Of a stretch of 40,927 bases of DNA, positions 4,000 through 26,273 are shown piece by piece (positions within the stretch are counted from its first letter, which is position 1; every line of letters begins with the position of its first letter). The notes under the pieces were generated by a model. That model searched no databases. It was not told the DNA's origin and was given only the letters and a program-made list of their open reading frames with translations. A program made the position numbers and the translations under genes. The stretch lies in the IMG/VR virus record IMGVR_UViG_2541047877_000008, one strand, 5' to 3'. Source of the DNA: a virus (lineage: Duplodnaviria > Heunggongvirae > Uroviricota > Caudoviricetes).

Positions 4000-4296
4000 T
4001 CAAATAGAGAAATAAACACAAAAACAAAAAACAACAGGAACAGCAAAATCCAACAGACTTCCCACATCCCACACGCGTGGATCAAAACCTCCCCACCACG
4101 GCATGTTGATACGTTTCCCTTTCCCAAACTTTTCTATCCAGCGATATTCTGCCTGGGTGTGTTCACGCGCAATGAAGAACGTACAACCGGCTATCGCACC
4201 GTAAGCCCAGTTTCCGGTAAAAATACCAACCAGTACCTGAGCCACAAAAGCGCAAAGCGAGTGAAGAAATGGAGTGACATCAATGCTCTTAATCAT
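4000..4296 (-). CDS. Small two-TM membrane protein translationally coupled to the tailspike gene (function unknown)
   Basis: ORF track 98 aa; start overlaps tailspike stop (ATGA-type overlap at 4293-4296); two hydrophobic segments; followed by an AT-rich 190-bp spacer before the holin gene. Confidence 0.4.
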   Translation of the reverse strand: MIKSIDVTPFLHSLCAFVAQVLVGIFTGNWAYGAIAGCTFFIAREHTQAEYRWIEKFGKGKRINMPWWGGFDPRVWDVGSLLDFAVPVVFCFCVYFSI

Positions 4297-6482
4297 GAAA
4301 CTTCCCCATTGGTTGAAAATATGGCTCCTCCAACGCCAAGTGTATTTCGTGTTGTGCTCAACCTCAGAGGGCTGGAGTCAGAATTAGAATATCCTGTAGC
4401 AGAAATAAAAGATCCTCCACTAATAGTCAACTGCGGAACATCGGCTATATCTGAATAAGTTCTGTCAGCAACAGTATTATTTATAGCCACATATGATCCA
4501 AAAAAACTTCTTATTGTTTGGTTTTTAACTTTACTTCCTTCAATGGTTATCCTACTACCACAGTCGGCAATAAATCCTGAATCTGCATCCAGCGTTGCAT
4601 TCATAAAAGAAGCTTCAGATCTCTCTACATCAATCCATCTAATATCTTTTGTGGGATTTGCACCAAATACATGACAAATATTAGAGTTAAACCTTACACC
4701 ATCTTGGAGGTGCATTAATTTTTTTATATCTGTACCCCATAGCCTTGGAAAATTAACAGATGCTCCTGCATGGCAATCAAATCCCAGCTCAGCCCCTGAG
4801 ATATCTACAGCCTTTCCTGAAATAACAGCACCAGTGTCTGCATTAACGGCTGTTCCACAATTGCGCATATCATTACCAGCAACATCAACGCAACCCGCAC
4901 CATCAATACGCACACCAAGTGCACATCCATAAAAACCTTTTTCAATATTTGGTTCAAGGACTTTACCACTTGTTTCTGCATCACTTTCTTCAACGTCATG
5001 TCGTCTTGCATCAACATATGCTGTATGAATGCAGGTTAATCCACGATATGAGCAATGTATAGTTTTATGGTCGCGTATATTAACATTTGAACCATCTCTT
5101 ACATTCCATCCTATATAACAATAGCTTGCACTTGACCCCTGAAAATCTGCTTTAACATTATAAATACAATTAACTGACGCAACCGTACTCTCTGTGCACC
5201 GTTCAAACTTGCTTACAGGCATTGATGCCTTGACATTATTTACCAGTTGCAGGGAAGAGTATCTGCTATAAGAAAAATCACATACGTAATACCCTTCTGG
5301 CATATATGCAGCAACACTTTCCTCATCAGGAGCACATCCGGTATGATATGCACTAATTTTTGCACCAAAACTACCATGAATTCCAACGTAGAACTTTCGA
5401 GCACCTGAATACGGATAGAAATTAAGTTCAGCTTTTTGAGTTACAATAAATGCACAAACATCGCTATCATCTCTATTTTCTTCGATCTGAATAGCAAATA
5501 CAGGACTTTTTGCTGCATCGCAAATGTAAAATAAATACTTGTATTCGTAATACGTTCTAACGATTTTAGTAAACAAACGAGTGTCAGAGAAAACCACTGA
5601 GTCTTCTGATGTTATTTTAATCCAAGACAAATCAACACCTGAACTGAATTCAATTTGATAGTTGATAATATGCCCGGTCTTAATTCTTATTTCGCAGAAA
5701 GCATTACCACCATCCCACATAGGTCTCATTGACTGGGCTGCAATGATTGCATCTTTGAGTGTAGGGTAATCACCCCATTCGCCAACAGTAATAACAAAAG
5801 TATAATATGAGTTAAAAACAGCGGCATTTTTGCCTTTGGATATCAACTCCTTAATCATAAAAATATTATCTTCGTAATCACAAGGAGAAATTATATCCCT
5901 CATTTTGCTTTGAAATGTTCGTTGTCTTGCCCCGCTTCCTGACGGTATAAACCAACCAAAACCACCAACAACCCCGGCGATTGCAGCATCGACATAATTA
6001 CGCATTGAGCGATTATTTACAGCGTCCTGCTCAAATGATGGATCTGCAAGGTTAGAAATTTTGTTTTGCTTTGCATCGTAATATTTTGCAAGCAAAGATG
6101 GTTTCATCAATGCACGTCTGAACCACCCAAAACATCGCTGGATCAGCATCGTCAGGTAGTCAAATGCATCTTCATGAACTTCGGGGAAAAATTTTCCCTG
6201 ATTGCGAAGATCAGTCTCCTGCACCACATCAAGCACACGCTCTATCGTAATTCGCCAGCCAGCAGCAAGCGGCGACGGGAGAACCACTTCACCGCCACTA
6301 TAAGTGCCCGCTCCAGTTACCTTATAACCGGTATCCAGAACCAATTCTGTTACGTTCCCGTTCAGGTCAGACACCTGAACAACCAGGTCGGTTTTTTTGA
6401 AAATACGGAAGGTATACGGAAATGATGTCGTAACGCCGTTACCGGTGTATTCGTTGTGGTCAACTTCGGTTGAGACCGTCAT
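4293..6482 (-). CDS. Tailspike / receptor-binding protein with T7 gp17-like N-terminal attachment domain
   Basis: ORF track 729 aa; N-terminal about 170 aa (NEYTGNGVTTSFPYTFRIFKKTDLVVQV...) resembles the particle-binding domain of T7-type tail fibers; remainder is Ser/Asn/Gly-rich and encoded by markedly AT-rich DNA (about 4300-5950). Confidence 0.75.
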   Translation of the reverse strand: MTVSTEVDHNEYTGNGVTTSFPYTFRIFKKTDLVVQVSDLNGNVTELVLDTGYKVTGAGTYSGGEVVLPSPLAAGWRITIERVLDVVQETDLRNQGKFFPEVHEDAFDYLTMLIQRCFGWFRRALMKPSLLAKYYDAKQNKISNLADPSFEQDAVNNRSMRNYVDAAIAGVVGGFGWFIPSGSGARQRTFQSKMRDIISPCDYEDNIFMIKELISKGKNAAVFNSYYTFVITVGEWGDYPTLKDAIIAAQSMRPMWDGGNAFCEIRIKTGHIINYQIEFSSGVDLSWIKITSEDSVVFSDTRLFTKIVRTYYEYKYLFYICDAAKSPVFAIQIEENRDDSDVCAFIVTQKAELNFYPYSGARKFYVGIHGSFGAKISAYHTGCAPDEESVAAYMPEGYYVCDFSYSRYSSLQLVNNVKASMPVSKFERCTESTVASVNCIYNVKADFQGSSASYCYIGWNVRDGSNVNIRDHKTIHCSYRGLTCIHTAYVDARRHDVEESDAETSGKVLEPNIEKGFYGCALGVRIDGAGCVDVAGNDMRNCGTAVNADTGAVISGKAVDISGAELGFDCHAGASVNFPRLWGTDIKKLMHLQDGVRFNSNICHVFGANPTKDIRWIDVERSEASFMNATLDADSGFIADCGSRITIEGSKVKNQTIRSFFGSYVAINNTVADRTYSDIADVPQLTISGGSFISATGYSNSDSSPLRLSTTRNTLGVGGAIFSTNGEVS

Positions 6483-6585: not shown

Positions 6586-6602
6586 ATTACCTTTCAGGTG
6601 AT
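6586..6602. promoter_or_regulatory. Operator-like palindrome ATTACC-TTTCA-GGTGAT
   Basis: Read directly from sequence; member of the TACC-N5-GGTA family; lies in the divergent region between the tailspike start (6482) and the ant-paralog gene. Confidence 0.5.
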
Positions 6603-6677
6603 TCGCAAAACGTGCTGGATAGCAAACAAATTATTTGCTACTGTATAAATATACAGTTATTGCATGGAGAAGATAAG

Positions 6678-6935
6678 ATGCAGCAGTATCACTATCCACT
6701 GGAAGACGGATTTACCGAAAGGATTCACACGCCGGGAGGCGTCAGGTCACTGGTGGAGGGATCGCATTTGATGAAATTACTCCGGGATCTCGATAAGGAT
6801 GGATTTAATGTCGATGGCCCACTTGCCGAACTGACTGCACTGATTAACTACGTCACCAGCTCACAGATGTCTATGCGGGATCTGCAAACACATCTCGACT
6901 ATTGTGCCGAACAATTACGAAAACAAACCAGATAA
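6678..6935 (+). CDS. Small protein paralogous to the C-terminal domain of the antirepressor
   Basis: Within track ORF 6612-6935; ATG at 6678 preceded by GGAGAAG; C-terminal about 55 aa align with the C-terminus of the 7249-7935 product (LMxLL..L..DG..V.G..AELT....Y.......RD.QTH..Y). Confidence 0.5.
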   Translation: MQQYHYPLEDGFTERIHTPGGVRSLVEGSHLMKLLRDLDKDGFNVDGPLAELTALINYVTSSQMSMRDLQTHLDYCAEQLRKQTR

Positions 6936-6938
6936 GGT

Positions 6939-6982
6939 TTGCAATTGCCAAGTGGAGTGCTTATATTTACCTTTGCGGTAAA
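6939..6982 (+). promoter_or_regulatory. Sigma70-like promoter (TTGCAA-17-TATATT) overlapped by operator-like palindrome TTTACC-TTTGC-GGTAAA
   Basis: -35 TTGCAA 6939-6944, 17-bp spacer, -10 TATATT 6962-6967; palindrome 6966-6982 overlaps the -10 element and predicted start site. Confidence 0.5.
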
Positions 6983-7095: not shown

Positions 7096-7248
7096 ATGTG
7101 TAAAGCGCACCTATTCTATGGTGGGCTGTGTGGGGGCACCGAAAGGTGCGCCGGGTCCTTTGTAGCCGGTTACGCCAACCCTGCACAGTTCACCACCAAC
7201 CGATTGGCGTCGGTAGTGGTGATTAACCTAACTACAAAGGTGATCACT

Positions 7249-7935
7249 ATGACTGCTAACGTAACCCCATCTGTTTTTCATTTTGAATCAGAAGCAACCA
7301 TTCGAGCCATTGTTATTGATGGAAATCCTTGGTTTGTTGCCAAAGACGTTATTAAAGCTCTTCAACTGACAAACCCCACTATGTCAATAAAATCTCTTGA
7401 TGATGATGAAAGGGCTAAATTTAACTTAGGCCGTCAAGGCGAAACCAATATTATCAACGAGTCAGGCCTCTACACACTGATCCTCCGCTGCCGCGATGCA
7501 GTAACACCAGGCACTATCCCCTACCGCTTTCGCAAATGGGTTACAGGTGAGGTACTTCCTCAGATCCGCCGCACCGGAAGTTACATTAAAAACTCGCTCC
7601 CGCAAGAAGAACGCATAAAGATGGTTGCCGACCAGGTAGCCAACGCCACGGCGTCAGCAGTGATGCAGGCAATGAAGATAGAGAACAAAACCTACAGCGC
7701 CCCACTGAAGCCCGGCTACCGCAGCCTGATTCACTCGCCGTCTGGTGTTCTCGGCCTGACGGAGAACTCACTGCTGATGAATCTGCTGAACCAGTTACAG
7801 GAAGACGGGCACGACGTATCGGGCGCGGCGGCGGAGCTGACCACCATGTTCTGCTACATCGTCGGTGTGAGTAAATGCCTGCGTGATATCCAGACCCACG
7901 CGGAATACATCAACGACAAAGCAGGGTTCTTCTGA
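7249..7935 (+). CDS. Antirepressor-like protein with N-terminal Bro-N domain
   Basis: Track ORF 7096-7935; ATG at 7249 with SD AAGGTGA; N-terminal IRAIVIDGNPWFVAKDVIKAL matches the Bro-N fold common to phage antirepressors; located between ejection genes and tailspike like P22 immI. Confidence 0.7.
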   Translation: MTANVTPSVFHFESEATIRAIVIDGNPWFVAKDVIKALQLTNPTMSIKSLDDDERAKFNLGRQGETNIINESGLYTLILRCRDAVTPGTIPYRFRKWVTGEVLPQIRRTGSYIKNSLPQEERIKMVADQVANATASAVMQAMKIENKTYSAPLKPGYRSLIHSPSGVLGLTENSLLMNLLNQLQEDGHDVSGAAAELTTMFCYIVGVSKCLRDIQTHAEYINDKAGFF

Positions 7936-7977: not shown

Positions 7978-8021
7978 TTGCAGACTGGGGGTGAATAGCG
8001 TACTATTACCTTAAAGGTAAA
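7978..8021 (+). promoter_or_regulatory. Promoter (TTGCAG-17-TACTAT) overlapped by operator-like palindrome ATTACC-TTAAA-GGTAAA
   Basis: -35 7978-7983, -10 8001-8006, palindrome 8005-8021; about 25 bp upstream of the strong RBS GAGGAGGAG of the 8047 gene. Confidence 0.5.
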
Positions 8022-8046
8022 CCATGTGTTTACATGAGGAGGAGAT

Positions 8047-8256
8047 ATGGGATTTTGGTTCGCTCGTACAAAAACGAGGGATAATGCACCCAGCCCTCAG
8101 GCAAAAAATGCAGAAGTTCCGGCGTCAGCGCAGGTTAACAAGCGTGGTGGTGTGTATATCTCATCACAGCAAATTTCTGAGCTTCCTGAGGTTAAGGAGA
8201 TGCGTCGTCTCGCTGCTGCAATCGTTAAACAGGATCTTGCCACTGTAAGGAAATAG
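8047..8256 (+). CDS. Small hypothetical protein, first gene of the accessory cassette
   Basis: ORF track 69 aa; strong SD GAGGAGGAG 8036-8044; stop overlaps the GTG start of the next gene (TAGTG). Confidence 0.5.
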   Translation: MGFWFARTKTRDNAPSPQAKNAEVPASAQVNKRGGVYISSQQISELPEVKEMRRLAAAIVKQDLATVRK

Positions 8257-9119
8257 TGTTGTTAGCTCTTCTAATTATCCCCATTCTGGTTAGTGGTTAT
8301 ATTATGATAACCGCTAACCAGTATCATTATTTCCGTTTATACCGACATGAAGGCCAGCTTCTTTATATGAAAGTTGCTGCATTAGGTACATATTGCCTTG
8401 TTGCTTCGGTAATAATTGCCGCATTTATAAAATATAAATATCCTGATTTTCACCTAGTTCACGATATGGTGGAAACTTTTAATGTAACGTCAAAACCAGA
8501 AACAGATAGAATTTACATGTGGCTACTTCTTCTGTCAGTCACATCAATTTGCTTCTCTTTGTGTTATGTATCTTTTGTTTGGCTAAAAGATCTTCTTTTA
8601 GGTTGTTTTTATAAACGTGATATTTATGACAAAATATCAGAGGCAATGAAAGCTAGGGTATTGCGAAAAACGTACTCCCAGGGTTCTTTAGATTTGCTAT
8701 TGCTTGATGCAATCGAATCAGATCCTAAGAAACCAATGTTAATTACTTTATCATCAAATAAAGTATACGTTGGAATAATAAATGGTTCTGGTGAGCCAAC
8801 GGAAAATCAAGGGCCACACCAACACATATCTTTTGTTCCTTTAATGTCAGGGTACAGAAACAAAGAAAATTTATCTGTTACATTTACAAACGCTTACCCA
8901 GGTGAAATCCAAATTAAGCGCAGTGCTGCGATAAAAGGGATAAGCAAAAAGAAAGTTCAAGGTCTAGAAATTATGGTATCTATAGACGAAATAAGTCATA
9001 TATCATGGTTTGACTTTGAAGTATATAAGGCAACAAATAACAAAGTAGAAACAAAGGGTCATGTTGTTAATGTGACCAAAAATGGTCGCAACATATACTA
9101 CAGAAGTGGCAGAAAATAA
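8256..9119 (+). CDS. Membrane protein (about 3 N-terminal TM helices plus about 175-aa soluble domain), AT-rich cargo gene; candidate superinfection-exclusion/defence component
   Basis: ORF track 287 aa, GTG start coupled to upstream stop; hydrophobic segments in first about 110 aa; DNA strongly AT-rich relative to neighbours; no motif recognised. Confidence 0.5.
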   Translation: MLLALLIIPILVSGYIMITANQYHYFRLYRHEGQLLYMKVAALGTYCLVASVIIAAFIKYKYPDFHLVHDMVETFNVTSKPETDRIYMWLLLLSVTSICFSLCYVSFVWLKDLLLGCFYKRDIYDKISEAMKARVLRKTYSQGSLDLLLLDAIESDPKKPMLITLSSNKVYVGIINGSGEPTENQGPHQHISFVPLMSGYRNKENLSVTFTNAYPGEIQIKRSAAIKGISKKKVQGLEIMVSIDEISHISWFDFEVYKATNNKVETKGHVVNVTKNGRNIYYRSGRK

Positions 9120-9135
9120 ATTTTACGCAGTTTAG

Positions 9136-9648
9136 GTGGCTTATATGGATAATACTATCTTAGGCGCATTGATAGGTGCAGTTATTGCTATAGTTTCCAC
9201 TTATATAAATGCAGGACAAGGATACAAAAACAGCATAAGATTAGAGCGACAAAAAATATTAAGGGATAAACGCGAGCAATTATTTATAAATTGTATACTT
9301 ACTAAAAAAGTCATAGATTCAAGCACAATTACCATTCTCAATTTCGTAAAAAATGCCAGATACCACTCTGATAGTAAATTTGACGTATCAAGAGCGAATC
9401 CGTTGCAAACGATGGAAATGCTAATAAACATATACCTTCCTGAGTATAAAAAAGACTTACAAGAACTCAATAATGCGTATCAAGAATTTCACAAATACTA
9501 CTCTCAATATACATGTGCACATACCTTCAAAAATATGCCTGATAATGAGAAGTCGAGGTTTATTGAGGAGGCTGATTTTTATGCAAAAAAGATATATGGC
9601 AAACTTAATGATATTAAGGACAAGATATCATTAAACTCAATAGTATAA
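9136..9648 (+). CDS. Membrane-anchored protein (single N-terminal TM, K/E-rich soluble domain), AT-rich cargo gene
   Basis: ORF track 170 aa; N-terminal ILGALIGAVIAIVSTYI hydrophobic helix; AT-rich; 16 nt downstream of previous gene. Confidence 0.5.
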   Translation: MAYMDNTILGALIGAVIAIVSTYINAGQGYKNSIRLERQKILRDKREQLFINCILTKKVIDSSTITILNFVKNARYHSDSKFDVSRANPLQTMEMLINIYLPEYKKDLQELNNAYQEFHKYYSQYTCAHTFKNMPDNEKSRFIEEADFYAKKIYGKLNDIKDKISLNSIV

Positions 9649-9723
9649 CAGCGATACTGCTGCTGACGGCTCCCGCTGCGGTGGGCGTTCTGCGGATTCC
9701 CGCCCAGGCGGCGGTGGCATTCG

Positions 9724-9750
9724 TTAAAAACAAGGCCGCGAAAGCGGCCT
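9724..9750 (-). terminator. Intrinsic terminator after the lipoprotein gene (end of ejection-gene transcription unit)
   Basis: AGGCCGC-GAAA-GCGGCCT hairpin 9733-9750; on the minus strand it is followed by a T-run (complement of AAAAA 9726-9730); 16 nt past the stop of the 9766-10179 gene. Confidence 0.55.
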
Positions 9751-9765
9751 GTGACATGTCACGAC

Positions 9766-10179
9766 TTATAAAGATGACTGATATTTTACAACTCTGTTCA
9801 TGGCATCTTTTTTCACCGAGCTGATATCAGTTCTTATTTTGGCTTCGTCATTACTGCTTATCATGCTATTAATTTTTTGCACTGACATGCCGTTTCTTTC
9901 AGCCATTGCACATACAGCAGCATCGTATGAAGAACTCGCTGCGATGGATATCACCTTGTTACACTCAAACACAGCACCTTCAGCAATATCAGATGCCGAT
10001 GAGGCTGGCTTGGTATAAGTCTTGACGTAGTGATCAATACAACTATCCTTCGCCGTCTTGGCAAGAGAAAAATCCATTTTAACTTTGTCGCAATATGCCT
10101 TATCAACACCGTCATAAACATCATAGGATGTCGAGCAAGCGGATATCAAAAATACCGATAACAGCAATAATTCCTTCAT
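9766..10179 (-). CDS. Lipoprotein (signal peptide plus lipobox ISAC), AT-rich; possible exclusion/cor-like cargo protein
   Basis: ORF track 137 aa; MKELLLLSVFLISAC lipoprotein signal; SD AAGGAA upstream; AT-rich composition. Confidence 0.55.
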   Translation of the reverse strand: MKELLLLSVFLISACSTSYDVYDGVDKAYCDKVKMDFSLAKTAKDSCIDHYVKTYTKPASSASDIAEGAVFECNKVISIAASSSYDAAVCAMAERNGMSVQKINSMISSNDEAKIRTDISSVKKDAMNRVVKYQSSL

Positions 10180-10188
10180 TGTTGTTCC

Positions 10189-12663
10189 TTATTGCGGAGT
10201 GACATCCTGAGGTCGCCACCAGTATGTCTGGTTAAACTCTTTCTTTGAACGTTGCTCCATTTTACGCAAATAGCCTGGTGAAAAATACTCCTGCATCTGG
10301 TTAAAGATCATGTGATCGAGAGCCGCCTTTAAGTACCAGAGATTCGCACCTGGCATCAGACCTTTCCCCAGCTTAACCAGATCACCACCAGTCTGCTCAT
10401 TCTTCCCTTCCACAGCATTTAACGGTATGCCCTGAGCAATCTTCACTACGTCATCAACCAGACCAGCTACCGGGCCAAGCATCGACGCCAACGCGCCGCT
10501 TCCGTACCTGGTGTGGTCAGAGAAAAGAAAATCACCATACAACCCTGCACCACCACCTTTTAAAAATGCATTTATCCAGAATTTAACCATGTTGTCACCG
10601 GTCATTTCTTTTGGATTTCTCCCATTAATAAGATCAGTAATCTGCATGGAAAGAGCACCAAGCATGGTTGTGCTTGCTAAAAACGTTGCTATATATGCTG
10701 CACGCCCACCAGCAGACGGCATCCCCATAGCTCTATGCCAGTGACGCATAACTACCGAGATAGGGAACGATTTAAACAGGAAAACACTTCTCGTTAATTC
10801 ACCTTTCCATGTTCCACGCTGAAGACCAGACCCTACGAACATCTGTTCACGTGCGCCCGGTGTAATAACAGCCATATCAACTTCTTCAGTTACGGCACCG
10901 AGCAGTTTACGCATTGCCTCAAATTTCACGCGTTCAGGCTCACCAAGATGTTTAACTGCTGAATCAGGGATACGCATAATGCTTTCCGGTGTCAGCATCG
11001 TATTATTACCGTTCCCCCAGTCCTCCTGTTGCGCCAGCTTCCATACGCTCCAGTCTGTGTCAGTAATCCCTTTGCTTTTCAGGATACGAAAATCAGAGTC
11101 ATCGAGGCTACGAAGGTCTGGTGTCCGTGACACTACTTCTCCCAGGCTTCCCATCATGGTTACGCCATAGGCGCGCTTGTGCGCATCTGACCATGCTGTA
11201 AGCCCACTGGCACGCATTACCGCCGTTGCCGCCCAACGAGACACAGACGGCCCCATATTATCCATCGCCCAGCGGTTAACGCTGCCAAGTAGAGATTCCA
11301 TCGCCAGGCCAGCGCGGCGCGCCCGCGCAAGTTCTGTACGGTTCGTTGGGTCCATAGCTTCAAGCTGGTTGCGAAATAACTGGTTCATTGGAAGGTTGGT
11401 AACCTTCGCAGACAGATACATGGTTCCAAGATCAGAGAACGATGACAGCAACGCGGATCCGAGTCTGCTGGCAACCAGCCAGTTGCGGATATTGTCAGAC
11501 CATCGCGCGATGTGCGGATTCGCTACAGGCTGTGTTTTTCCGGAAATAAAGTTGTACAAGTTCTCTGTTTTGTTCGCCAGACGCTCGACGCTACCGGTTT
11601 TACTCGGGTTAGCTGTTGCCGTTTCTGCCTTAACCTGATCAAGAAGGGAGCGGAAAACATGATCGGGGTTTGGGCCATATGTTTCCACCAGTGCAATATC
11701 TTTACTGATACCTTCCAGGTGACCGACCATGATTTCCCATAGAGAGCGATCGCCATAAAGTTGCTGATATTGCAGATAGGAATCTGCATCTTTGAAATGT
11801 ATCTGTCGTGATGCATTACCACGGTTAGCACGTGCGCCGGAAATTCGCATTCCGGTATCAGTAAGCTTATTCAGCCCACCAGTAGCGATCGTGTTATAAG
11901 CCTCTCCAAGAAATTCAGACAACTCGGCATCGTTCATCAGTTGTCCATCGGCTCGGATATAATATTTGCGATCCAGCTTACCTATAACATCGCTAACCCA
12001 CTTATCCTTTGATACCGACCCAACCTTTTCCATAGAATGATGTTGAGGGATCCCCCAGTTTTCGAGATAGCCAATGTCCCCACCAGCATCATTAAACCGG
12101 CGGCGCAGCAGCTCTGTAACTTCTCTCCACGCCTTAGCACCTTTTCTTGCTTTAGCATTGCCAGTATTTTGCCCCCGCATTTCATATACCAGGTCACGCA
12201 CGCCAGCTTCATCTTCAAACAGGCCAAAAAAGCGAGGATCAACTGCTTCAAATGCCTCTTGCAATTGACTCAATGCATAATCACGAGTGGCTTTTGTTCT
12301 GGATTCAACAGAGAGGAAATTCGATTTACCGTCTGCATTAAAAGCAATAGTACGGTTAAGAGCGCCAAGTTTCCCATCAGCCCCTTGATAGCTATTGATA
12401 AATTTATCCAATCTCTGACGTGCGGCTATAGTGAGGGCCACACGACGTTTCTTTAATGCCGCTTCTCGCTGTAATTCTTCAGATGCCAATTGTGCTGCAC
12501 GATACAACCGTTCTGATTCGGAAAGTTGTCGCCACGACATCGGGTCATCACGAGCAATGGAGCGCATATTTCGATAAATGCGGTCTTCAATGTTCTGTAT
12601 TTCTCGCGCCGTTAACGTGCGCTGCGCCGCCTGCTGGACCGCTTGTATACATTCCTGTCTCAT
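10189..12663 (-). CDS. Large internal virion / DNA-ejection protein (T7 gp16-position)
   Basis: ORF track 824 aa; position and size within a run of three giant structural ORFs following tail-tube genes; no direct motif assignment. Confidence 0.55.
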   Translation of the reverse strand: MRQECIQAVQQAAQRTLTAREIQNIEDRIYRNMRSIARDDPMSWRQLSESERLYRAAQLASEELQREAALKKRRVALTIAARQRLDKFINSYQGADGKLGALNRTIAFNADGKSNFLSVESRTKATRDYALSQLQEAFEAVDPRFFGLFEDEAGVRDLVYEMRGQNTGNAKARKGAKAWREVTELLRRRFNDAGGDIGYLENWGIPQHHSMEKVGSVSKDKWVSDVIGKLDRKYYIRADGQLMNDAELSEFLGEAYNTIATGGLNKLTDTGMRISGARANRGNASRQIHFKDADSYLQYQQLYGDRSLWEIMVGHLEGISKDIALVETYGPNPDHVFRSLLDQVKAETATANPSKTGSVERLANKTENLYNFISGKTQPVANPHIARWSDNIRNWLVASRLGSALLSSFSDLGTMYLSAKVTNLPMNQLFRNQLEAMDPTNRTELARARRAGLAMESLLGSVNRWAMDNMGPSVSRWAATAVMRASGLTAWSDAHKRAYGVTMMGSLGEVVSRTPDLRSLDDSDFRILKSKGITDTDWSVWKLAQQEDWGNGNNTMLTPESIMRIPDSAVKHLGEPERVKFEAMRKLLGAVTEEVDMAVITPGAREQMFVGSGLQRGTWKGELTRSVFLFKSFPISVVMRHWHRAMGMPSAGGRAAYIATFLASTTMLGALSMQITDLINGRNPKEMTGDNMVKFWINAFLKGGGAGLYGDFLFSDHTRYGSGALASMLGPVAGLVDDVVKIAQGIPLNAVEGKNEQTGGDLVKLGKGLMPGANLWYLKAALDHMIFNQMQEYFSPGYLRKMEQRSKKEFNQTYWWRPQDVTPQ

Positions 12664-26235: not shown

Positions 26236-26273
26236 TTGACATTTAACGCACAAATTATTACCTTTCAGGTAAC
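26236..26273 (+). promoter_or_regulatory. Promoter-like TTGACA box with operator-like palindrome ATTACC-TTTCA-GGTAAC, upstream of the tRNA unit
   Basis: TTGACA 26236-26241; palindrome 26257-26273 17 bp downstream (putative -10 TACCTT inside the half-site). Confidence 0.45.

Follow-up and report, generated by a model that had tools for sequence, protein, structure and literature searches.

Gene content of the region and its two cargo insertions

The stretch of DNA analyzed here, referred to as the window, comprises 40,927 nucleotides (nt) of a prophage of the Caudoviricetes (IMG/VR record IMGVR_UViG_2541047877_000008). Between its antirepressor gene and the genes for internal virion or ejection-type proteins lies a group of four open reading frames (ORFs) at positions 8047 to 10179, which a first-pass annotation had described as an AT-rich, operator-controlled cassette of membrane proteins and as an uncharacterized candidate for exclusion or defence. 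The central subject of this study is the gene pair orfA and orfB within this region. The genes and boundaries of the region are as follows:

8047 to 8256, plus strand: orfA, soluble protein of 69 amino acids (aa), obligate partner of orfB (phrog_5739)
8256 to 9119, plus strand: orfB, predicted inner-membrane protein of 287 aa, GTG start
9136 to 9648, plus strand: orfC, ORF of 170 aa (GTG start) or 167 aa (RefSeq, ATG at 9145)
9766 to 10179, minus strand: convergent gene for a lipoprotein of 137 aa, recognized by its lipobox
8022 to 9647, plus strand: cargo insertion 1, the orfA-orfB-orfC operon, delimited by breakpoints against phages TL-2011b and phiv142-3
9765 to 10185, minus strand: cargo insertion 2, the lipoprotein gene at the end of the late virion operon, delimited by a break in homology
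9648 to 9764, no strand assigned: backbone remnant, 3' part of a small gene for a 'transmembrane anchored protein', 97% identical to TL-2011b and phiv142-3
9733 to 9750, minus strand: GC-rich stem-loop found as a terminator-like site in a sequence scan, which reads as a terminator for the minus strand

All four ORFs were confirmed at the positions originally proposed. Each belongs over its full length to a PHROG family of unknown function, and comparison with diverged copies gave ratios of non-synonymous to synonymous changes (pN/pS) of 0.10 for orfA, 0.16 for orfB, 0.72 for orfC and 0.07-0.35 for the lipoprotein gene. Because of these families and ratios, the ORFs are regarded as real genes and not as chance ORFs. 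The guanine-plus-cytosine (GC) content of orfB (0.343), orfC (0.316) and the lipoprotein gene (0.394) is low compared to the window (0.483), while that of orfA is 0.48, in line with the initial description of all but the first gene as AT-rich. Hydropathy analysis likewise bore out the transmembrane (TM) topology that had been proposed, with OrfB containing three segments and OrfC a single one, while OrfA had none; the AlphaFold2 (AF2) model agreed for OrfB.

To define the borders of the cassette, the window was compared with TL-2011b and phiv142-3. Homology of the backbone ends at 8021/8022, restarts exactly at the orfC stop codon (9648) and runs to 9764; it is broken a second time at 9765-10185 and is back within the gene for an 824-aa virion protein. 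Since the backbone is interrupted twice (8022-9647 and 9765-10185), the region is best described as two independent, adjacent cargo insertions in two slots. The first breakpoint lies upstream of orfA, and therefore this gene, although normal in GC content, is considered part of the acquired cargo. Within the remnant between the two insertions (9648-9764), RefSeq annotates a truncated pseudogene. orfA, orfB and orfC form one operon in one insertion, but instead of the three-gene unit of the first-pass annotation the conserved unit consists of two genes only, orfA and orfB, with orfC as an add-on. The lipoprotein gene, which had been listed together with that unit, is a separate insertion; prophages of Citrobacter and Cedecea carry it but lack orfABC.

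The block 8000-9764 travels as a unit: in seven Escherichia coli genomes, query coverage was at least 80%. Among 5,426 complete E. coli genomes, orfB was present in 28, the lipoprotein gene in 22 and the slot flanks in 491 (~9%). When positions 8000-10200 were used as query, coverage reached a maximum of ~80% in any complete genome and the best matches ended before the lipoprotein gene, which indicates that the cargo of slot 1 and slot 2 assorts independently. In related phages slot 1 holds other cargo: a YafO-toxin pair in TL-2011b and small ORFs in phiv142-3, and it is almost empty in phiV10. The view of an accessory, horizontally exchanged membrane-protein cassette between antirepressor and virion genes is supported by these data. 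We know of no description of this antirepressor-proximal slot as a hotspot.

Two further observations concern the YafO-family toxin pair. In TL-2011b (locus L003, 4184-4883) it fills the same slot from promoter/operator to terminator. In E. coli GPEC1186 (locus L001, 9879-10818) it is located elsewhere, upstream of the Bro-N gene; this prophage contains orfABC as well.

orfA and orfB form a conserved and mobile gene pair

The conserved unit of the first insertion is the pair orfA+orfB (orfAB), which represents a large, mobile and uncharacterized family. In 47 genome loci and in metagenomic loci, an ORF of 57-94 aa ends -1 to +24 nt from the start of the orfB-like gene. A hidden Markov model (HMM) of orfA, built from 16 seed sequences, matched, at 50 loci and with E values from 1e-15 to 1e-27, the ORF that directly precedes an orfB-like gene, and gave no stray matches outside this position. 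It also matched in Cronobacter phage phiES15 and in an IncC plasmid, both outside the seed set. No conserved third gene was found downstream of orfB across 31 loci, and no OrfA-OrfB fusion proteins, which would be a sign of physical contact, were present among 208 collected proteins.

A word-indexed search with orfB returned 32 clusters, all from Enterobacterales. With a profile search without word index, 2,782 representatives at 50% identity were obtained (E <=1e-3), and 1,623 at E <=1e-10. Members of the family are found in Gamma-, Beta- and Alphaproteobacteria, in phages and on IncC plasmids, and all of them are named 'hypothetical protein' in their sources. Neither the OrfB of the window nor 101 diverse relatives matched Pfam or NCBIfam, and a search of the PDB with the family profile yielded no sequence below E 0.49. 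As no product of the cassette matched any curated family, the initial impression that none of them carries a recognized motif was upheld.

The pair moves between phages, plasmids and chromosomes. In the P2-like phages SEN4/SEN5 and in Klebsiella phage ST15-OXA48phi14.1 it occupies the gpA-gpQ region, and this region is the anti-phage hotspot of P2, which holds old and tin, P2 genes for phage exclusion (Rousset et al., PMC9122126). Phage phiES15 and a Citrobacter lambdoid prophage have further copies between int and attP, two Pseudomonas phages have the pair at their genome ends, and others are found on IncC conjugative plasmids of Salmonella and beside umuDC. In addition, ~30 unrelated chromosomal contexts were found, with neighbours including three integrases, a CBASS cyclase with NucC, a DpdE/ZorD-like helicase and methyltransferases. 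The GC content of orfB was below the local value in every context checked.

In ST15-OXA48phi14.1 (locus L062, 4786-7495), orfAB is followed by a 69-aa ORF and then by a bSEFIR gene (PADLOC 6.9e-103); this four-gene stretch may consist of stacked systems or of one larger unit. On the IncC plasmid pSTY1-2010K-1587 (locus L076, 2872-5789), orfAB lies just downstream of a gene for a 548-aa AAA-family ATPase and beside a mer transposon.

OrfB is predicted to carry an Sm/Hfq-like barrel on a membrane anchor

Hydropathy analysis placed the three TM segments of OrfB at residues 1-22, 35-60 and 85-116, and matching helices (2-27, 30-61 and 81-119) were obtained in the AF2 model (predicted local distance difference test, pLDDT, 70.7). 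Behind the TM helices the model shows two short helices, then a five-stranded Sm/Hfq-like barrel (~144-221) and extra C-terminal strands. According to the charge distribution and the positive-inside rule, the N-terminus is predicted to be outside and the barrel cytoplasmic. As modelled, OrfB is therefore anchored in the inner membrane by three TM helices and exposes an Sm/Hfq/WYL-like beta-barrel to the cytoplasm. Residues that are invariant or nearly so cluster in TM1 and loop 1 (P9, G14, R30, G33, Y37, G44) and in the barrel (K169, Y171, G173, P195, S198, G199, R201).

Across the family, TM1 and the loop-1 motif (LHRYDGQxLYLK) are nearly constant. The length of the predicted periplasmic TM2-TM3 loop differs among members, and relatives of 310-354 aa (P0039, P0043, P0044, P0073, P0084, P0122 and P0171) are longer because of a variable insert there.

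The modelled barrel meets the description of the Sm fold, with an N-terminal helix and five strongly bent strands. In contrast to Hfq, Sm and LSm proteins and to WYL proteins (DriD, BrxR, CapW, PafBC), which are soluble, OrfB is anchored by three TM helices. Its motifs KVYVG and PLMSGYR are not Sm1/Sm2 motifs, and the Pfam models of Hfq, LSM and WYL gave no match in the OrfB of the window or in the 101 relatives. OrfB further differs from WYL sensors in lacking their association with helix-turn-helix (HTH)/WCX regulators. On the basis of the model, the barrel is grouped with Sm, Hfq and WYL domains by fold and with none of them by sequence. A fold search of BFVD with OrfB returned uncharacterized proteins only, at low TM-score.

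The architecture and length of OrfB also recall the mechanosensitive channel MscS, which has 286 aa, three TM helices and an Sm-like middle domain. OrfB might accordingly serve cell physiology as a membrane channel or stress sensor that is loosely of the MscS kind, is accompanied by a small regulator and is carried by the phage as a passive moron. In favour of this, a core-like locus with orfAB is syntenic in 14 Pseudomonas species and many neighbours of the pair elsewhere are housekeeping genes. OrfB fails, however, to show MS_channel homology or an overall fold match to MscS-type channels, and we consider such a role very unlikely.

OrfA and the orfA/orfB junction

No hydrophobic segment was detected in OrfA by hydropathy analysis. 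Its C-terminal part carries the conserved motif (R/K)VxGRGxVxI(D/P)xxE(V/I)...A(K/R)xIV, and the GRGxVxIPxEE motif had raised the idea that OrfA is a swapped-hairpin antitoxin of the AbrB/MazE type. This idea was rejected for want of support in Pfam or the PDB: the orfA profile and 23 members found no relative in either database, with no match to AbrB/MazE, ribbon-helix-helix (RHH), HTH or Phd folds.

The GTG start codon of orfB shares 1 nt with the orfA stop codon. Folding of the mRNA around this junction revealed a structure:

8249 to 8334, plus strand: mRNA structure at the junction of orfA stop and orfB start, predicted by folding

The minimum free energy was -32.5 kcal/mol (z = -6.2), and 0 of 200 shuffled sequences folded as well. 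In the outer stem, GGAAAUAGUG (8249-8258), which contains the Shine-Dalgarno sequence and GTG start of orfB, is paired with 8325-8334, and further inside, positions 8286-8321 form a 15-bp hairpin. Relatives from Symbiopectobacterium, Providencia, Citrobacter and metagenomes (45-55% protein identity) retain this inner hairpin, with both bases altered in two of its pairs. More distant clades lack it, which confines it to an enterobacterial subclade; as the covariation term of RNAalifold was weak as well, the hairpin was dismissed as a family-wide feature. The RNA plausibly acts as a translational coupler or attenuator, which would make orfB translation dependent on ribosomes that finish orfA.

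A small gene followed by a larger one, translational coupling and restriction of orfB initiation by an RNA structure are also what would be expected of a plain addiction module, a toxin-antitoxin (TA) pair or selfish stabilization module with OrfB as membrane toxin, OrfA as antitoxin and no role against phages. The presence of orfAB on IncC plasmids and of the YafO toxin pair in the same slot of TL-2011b would agree with this. By sequence, however, OrfA shows no DNA-binding fold of the antitoxin type, and the long syntenic retention in Pseudomonas would be unusual for an addiction module. With type II TA systems orfAB shares the two-gene layout and translational coupling only. Pure addiction is therefore judged decidedly improbable, bearing in mind that many TA systems prove defensive and that this explanation overlaps with the conflict module favoured below.

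The prophage is a Uetakevirus and its cargo slot is predicted to be under repressor control

The flanks of the region match phages phiV10, phiv142-3, TL-2011b and SPN1S, of which phiV10 and phiv142-3, both annotated, are classified as Uetakevirus. The annotated relatives show the epsilon15/phiV10 gene order, namely tail fibre, a small ORF, a Bro-N antirepressor, a variable slot and virion proteins of 824 and 600 aa, and they also carry a holin/endolysin block and a tyrosine integrase. The antirepressors are of the Bro-N type and located downstream of CI-type operators, and do not correspond to the mnt-arc-ant arrangement of Lederbergvirus immI. By these comparisons the prophage is a Uetakevirus (epsilon15/phiV10-like) and not a P22-like Lederbergvirus.

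Upstream of the cargo, two regulatory elements were identified:

7978 to 8006, plus strand: backbone promoter of the cargo slot, read from the sequence (-35 TTGCAG at 7978-7983, 17-nt spacer, -10 TACTAT at 8001-8006)
8006 to 8020, no strand assigned: putative operator of the prophage repressor, perfect palindrome TTACCTTAAAGGTAA, found by motif scan

The promoter matches 8 of 12 consensus positions, which is slightly under the threshold of the promoter scan, and it lies in the backbone shared with TL-2011b and phiv142-3 that ends at 8021/8022. Because both promoter and operator are part of this backbone, the cargo brings no promoter of its own. The palindrome TTACCTTNNAGGTAA has 27 strand matches at 15 positions in the window, compared to 0.66 expected. 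The 15-bp operator TTACCTNNNAGGTAA is found at 6587-6601, 6967-6981 and 8006-8020, and at 26258, 26875, 29826, 32722, 32784, 34730, 35067, 35115, 35827 and 35889. The likely prophage repressor is encoded by an HTH_3 (Cro/CI-type) gene (35185-35769) with paired sites, spaced by 48-62 nt, on either side, and the copies at 6587 and 6967 stand upstream of two antirepressor-type genes. The elements at 6967, 8006, 26258 and 35889 share one design, in which a -35-like hexamer, 17 nt, a -10-like hexamer and the operator follow each other and the T that ends the -10 hexamer also opens the operator. Operators of such a type have reportedly been described for the epsilon15 genome.

The operator control proposed in the first-pass annotation is in agreement with these findings, as the perfect palindrome at 8006-8020 directly abuts a -10-like hexamer. 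Since the sole upstream promoter is overlapped by a repressor operator, the prediction is that the cargo of slot 1 stays repressed in a stable lysogen and is induced together with the two antirepressor-type genes.

Early expression together with the antirepressors could also serve phage growth, which would make orfAB a helper of the lytic cycle that acts in host takeover, membrane remodelling, lysis timing or counter-defence. Both the design of the only upstream promoter, which is that of a repressor-controlled early promoter, and the position of the slot in the early/ant region would fit. On the other hand, orfAB occurs far from any phage, on conjugative plasmids, beside umuDC and at the syntenic site of the 14 Pseudomonas species; in P2-like phages it occupies the old/tin hotspot (PMC9122126); and phiV10 and other relatives do without it. 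A lytic helper function is therefore regarded as unlikely.

Two neighbouring features of the prophage deserve mention. The antirepressor-type genes (6612-6935 and 7096-7935) are arranged in tandem with an operator before each, and the first, an ORF of 107 aa, encodes on its own the domain (phrog_450/15539) that is found at the C-terminus of the 279-aa Bro-N protein. The gene for the tail fibre or tailspike (729 aa, 4293-6482) is AT-rich (GC 0.40 overall, 0.36-0.39 over 5000-6000) with an N-terminal end near the genome average, which suggests that its receptor-binding part was swapped.

orfC and the lipoprotein

OrfC has one N-terminal TM helix (~6-27 by hydropathy) and a helical, Lys/Asn-rich cytoplasmic part. 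Only 12 protein clusters were found in 5.8 billion sequences, with named members all from E. coli, and a tblastn search of 50,697 phage records gave no match. In Uetakevirus prophages orfC always follows orfAB on contigs that are long enough to show the context, and it is absent from every other orfAB locus examined. Comparison of 9145-9648 of the window with the copy in another prophage (locus L067, 5001-5504) revealed 31 non-synonymous and 10 synonymous differences (pN/pS 0.72), compared to a pN/pS of 0.16 for orfB in the same prophage pair, which indicates relaxed or diversifying selection. Judged from these data, orfC is a fast-evolving, lineage-specific accessory add-on that is almost restricted to E. 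coli.

The lipoprotein carries the lipobox LISAC with Cys15 and four invariant Cys residues in its mature part; because of the Ser at position +2, it is expected to be sorted to the outer membrane. Its model is a confident all-alpha bundle (pLDDT 86), for which a structure search returned no informative neighbour. The gene starts 9 nt past the stop codon of the 824-aa virion gene. Prophages of Citrobacter and Cedecea have it 2-9 nt after a gene for an 824- or 848-aa protein, with the antirepressor next and orfABC absent. By its gene order the lipoprotein is an independent moron of the late operon, separate from orfABC, and its constant position as the last gene of the virion operon points to a candidate phage envelope function, perhaps in exclusion. 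As a small, disulfide-bonded, phage-encoded envelope protein it resembles T5 Llp, phi80/N15 Cor and T4 Spackle. Homology to these proteins was considered and dropped, as no significant sequence or fold match was obtained and the only match to Spackle, with E 0.82, was far below the threshold.

Comparison with SieA and superinfection exclusion

In the first-pass annotation the cassette was assigned to the position that holds sieA-type exclusion genes in P22-like phages. The gene order of P22 is ejection gene 16, sieA, mnt, arc/ant and tailspike, and as in P22 the gene of an inner-membrane protein lies between ejection genes and antirepressor; the position is thus analogous, but in a Uetakevirus and not in a P22-like prophage. 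SieA homology of any product of the cassette was rejected: comparison of P22 SieA (164 aa) with the orfB family profile by hhalign gave a probability of 0.75%, and BLASTP yielded E 3.2 against orfC and 0.11 against the lipoprotein. SieA acts in the lysogen, and sieA has an annotated promoter of its own, while the cassette in slot 1 stands behind a repressor operator. Because this promoter design is that of repressor-controlled early promoters, expression in the lysogen in the manner of sieA is disfavoured. The sieA-type label was therefore abandoned, whereas the more general idea of an uncharacterized exclusion or defence candidate is retained on account of the locations of orfAB in other phages.

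Superinfection exclusion proper, in the manner of SieA or T4 Imm, would mean that OrfB, possibly with OrfC, blocks entry of phage genomes without killing the cell and that the lipoprotein masks or blocks a step at the envelope. All three are envelope proteins, the position is that of sieA, and expression in the absence of repressor would shield an induced or freshly infected cell from competitors. Against this stand the missing similarity to SieA and the insignificant Spackle match. Moreover, what is conserved in OrfB is a barrel on the cytoplasmic side, and its partner is cytoplasmic too, which fits sensing or regulation better than a passive block, and orfAB is also found on plasmids and at core-like chromosomal sites. 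Exclusion of this kind thus appears improbable.

Proposed function of orfAB

Because of the locations of orfAB in other phages, a role in conflict or defence is favoured. We tentatively propose, with a confidence that falls somewhat short of even, that orfAB is a conflict module acting on the membrane, which resembles abortive-infection or TA systems. In the P4 satellite defence hotspot, 6 of 8 randomly chosen loci of unknown function were defensive (PMC13586616), and TM proteins of defence systems are usually suicide effectors (PMC9122126). Slot 1 is similar to other hotspots of temperate phages (P2 gpA-gpQ; int-att morons) in that its flanks are conserved, with promoter/operator on one side and terminator on the other, and its cargo is swappable; the P2 hotspot even houses the same orfAB pair. 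It differs from them in that the cargo of the Uetakevirus slot is predicted to be under control of the phage repressor and not to be expressed in the lysogen.

The anatomy, the pairing of the two genes, their mobility and the hotspot sites that house them are observed; the mechanism that we infer is as follows. OrfA would be made first and, through translational coupling, precede OrfB, which it would inhibit or for which it would act as a sensor. OrfB might oligomerize via its Sm-like barrel into a ring, as Sm and Hfq proteins do, and its TM helices could form a pore-like assembly. A trigger linked to phage infection might then free OrfB, which would lead to collapse of the membrane potential and to aborted infection or cell death. 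In the stable lysogen the module would be silent; without repressor, upon induction or just after entry, it would be switched on along with the antirepressors.

By analogy, OrfB may work most like defence effectors that combine TM helices with a small cytoplasmic sensor domain, such as CBASS Cap15 and Hailong HalA, with which it shares this architecture, the two-gene layout and the hotspot location (PMC9122126, PMC13586616, PMC12360457). It differs from both in that there is no homology, that orfAB lacks a cyclase or nucleotidyltransferase partner, and that the partner of OrfB is a protein of ~65 aa without recognizable domain. The systems named in the hotspot papers (2TM-1TM-TIR, Bandua, Aernus, Toga, Reve and Hailong) were compared by description and none fits orfAB. 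The literature search found no account of orfAB accessions or of Sm-like/Hfq-like anti-phage proteins.

Several points weigh against a conflict module. The four proteins of the cassette had no match in PADLOC-DB v2.0.0, which agrees with the label 'uncharacterized' given at the outset. With PADLOC, only two chance-level matches were obtained for 101 members of the orfB family and none for five phage or plasmid copies of orfAB, so that homology to a validated system is lacking. Many chromosomal neighbours of orfAB are housekeeping genes, and the 14 Pseudomonas species (oryzihabitans/luteola/duriflava group) share one syntenic chromosomal site at which the GC content of orfAB is close to that of the host (0.61 compared to 0.66). 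In these species the pair looks like the product of long vertical retention and not like a mobile defence gene. A module that is repressed in the lysogen, as predicted from the promoter, could not protect the lysogen, and the gain for the prophage is not evident. Finally, the confidence of the OrfB model is moderate only.

A more specific and rather doubtful proposal is that orfAB founds a new anti-phage family, in which a membrane-embedded Sm/Hfq-like ring is a pore gated by a ligand or nucleic acid, the 65-aa partner restrains or triggers it, and the slot is a repressor-controlled hotspot. If this were true, OrfB would be the first membrane-anchored effector with an Sm fold, and the antirepressor-proximal slot of Uetakevirus would be a new kind of hotspot, the cargo of which is deployed at induction or entry rather than in the lysogen.

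Should orfAB prove not to be defensive, the two genes would remain a clearly bounded module that lends itself to simple tests. If it is defensive, a large family (2,782 representatives) that is invisible to PADLOC, Pfam and NCBIfam would be added to the defence repertoire. An Sm-like barrel on a three-helix membrane anchor would represent an undescribed effector architecture, and the swappable cargo slot of Uetakevirus, with its unusual repressor-operator logic, bears on the timing of accessory gene expression in prophages.

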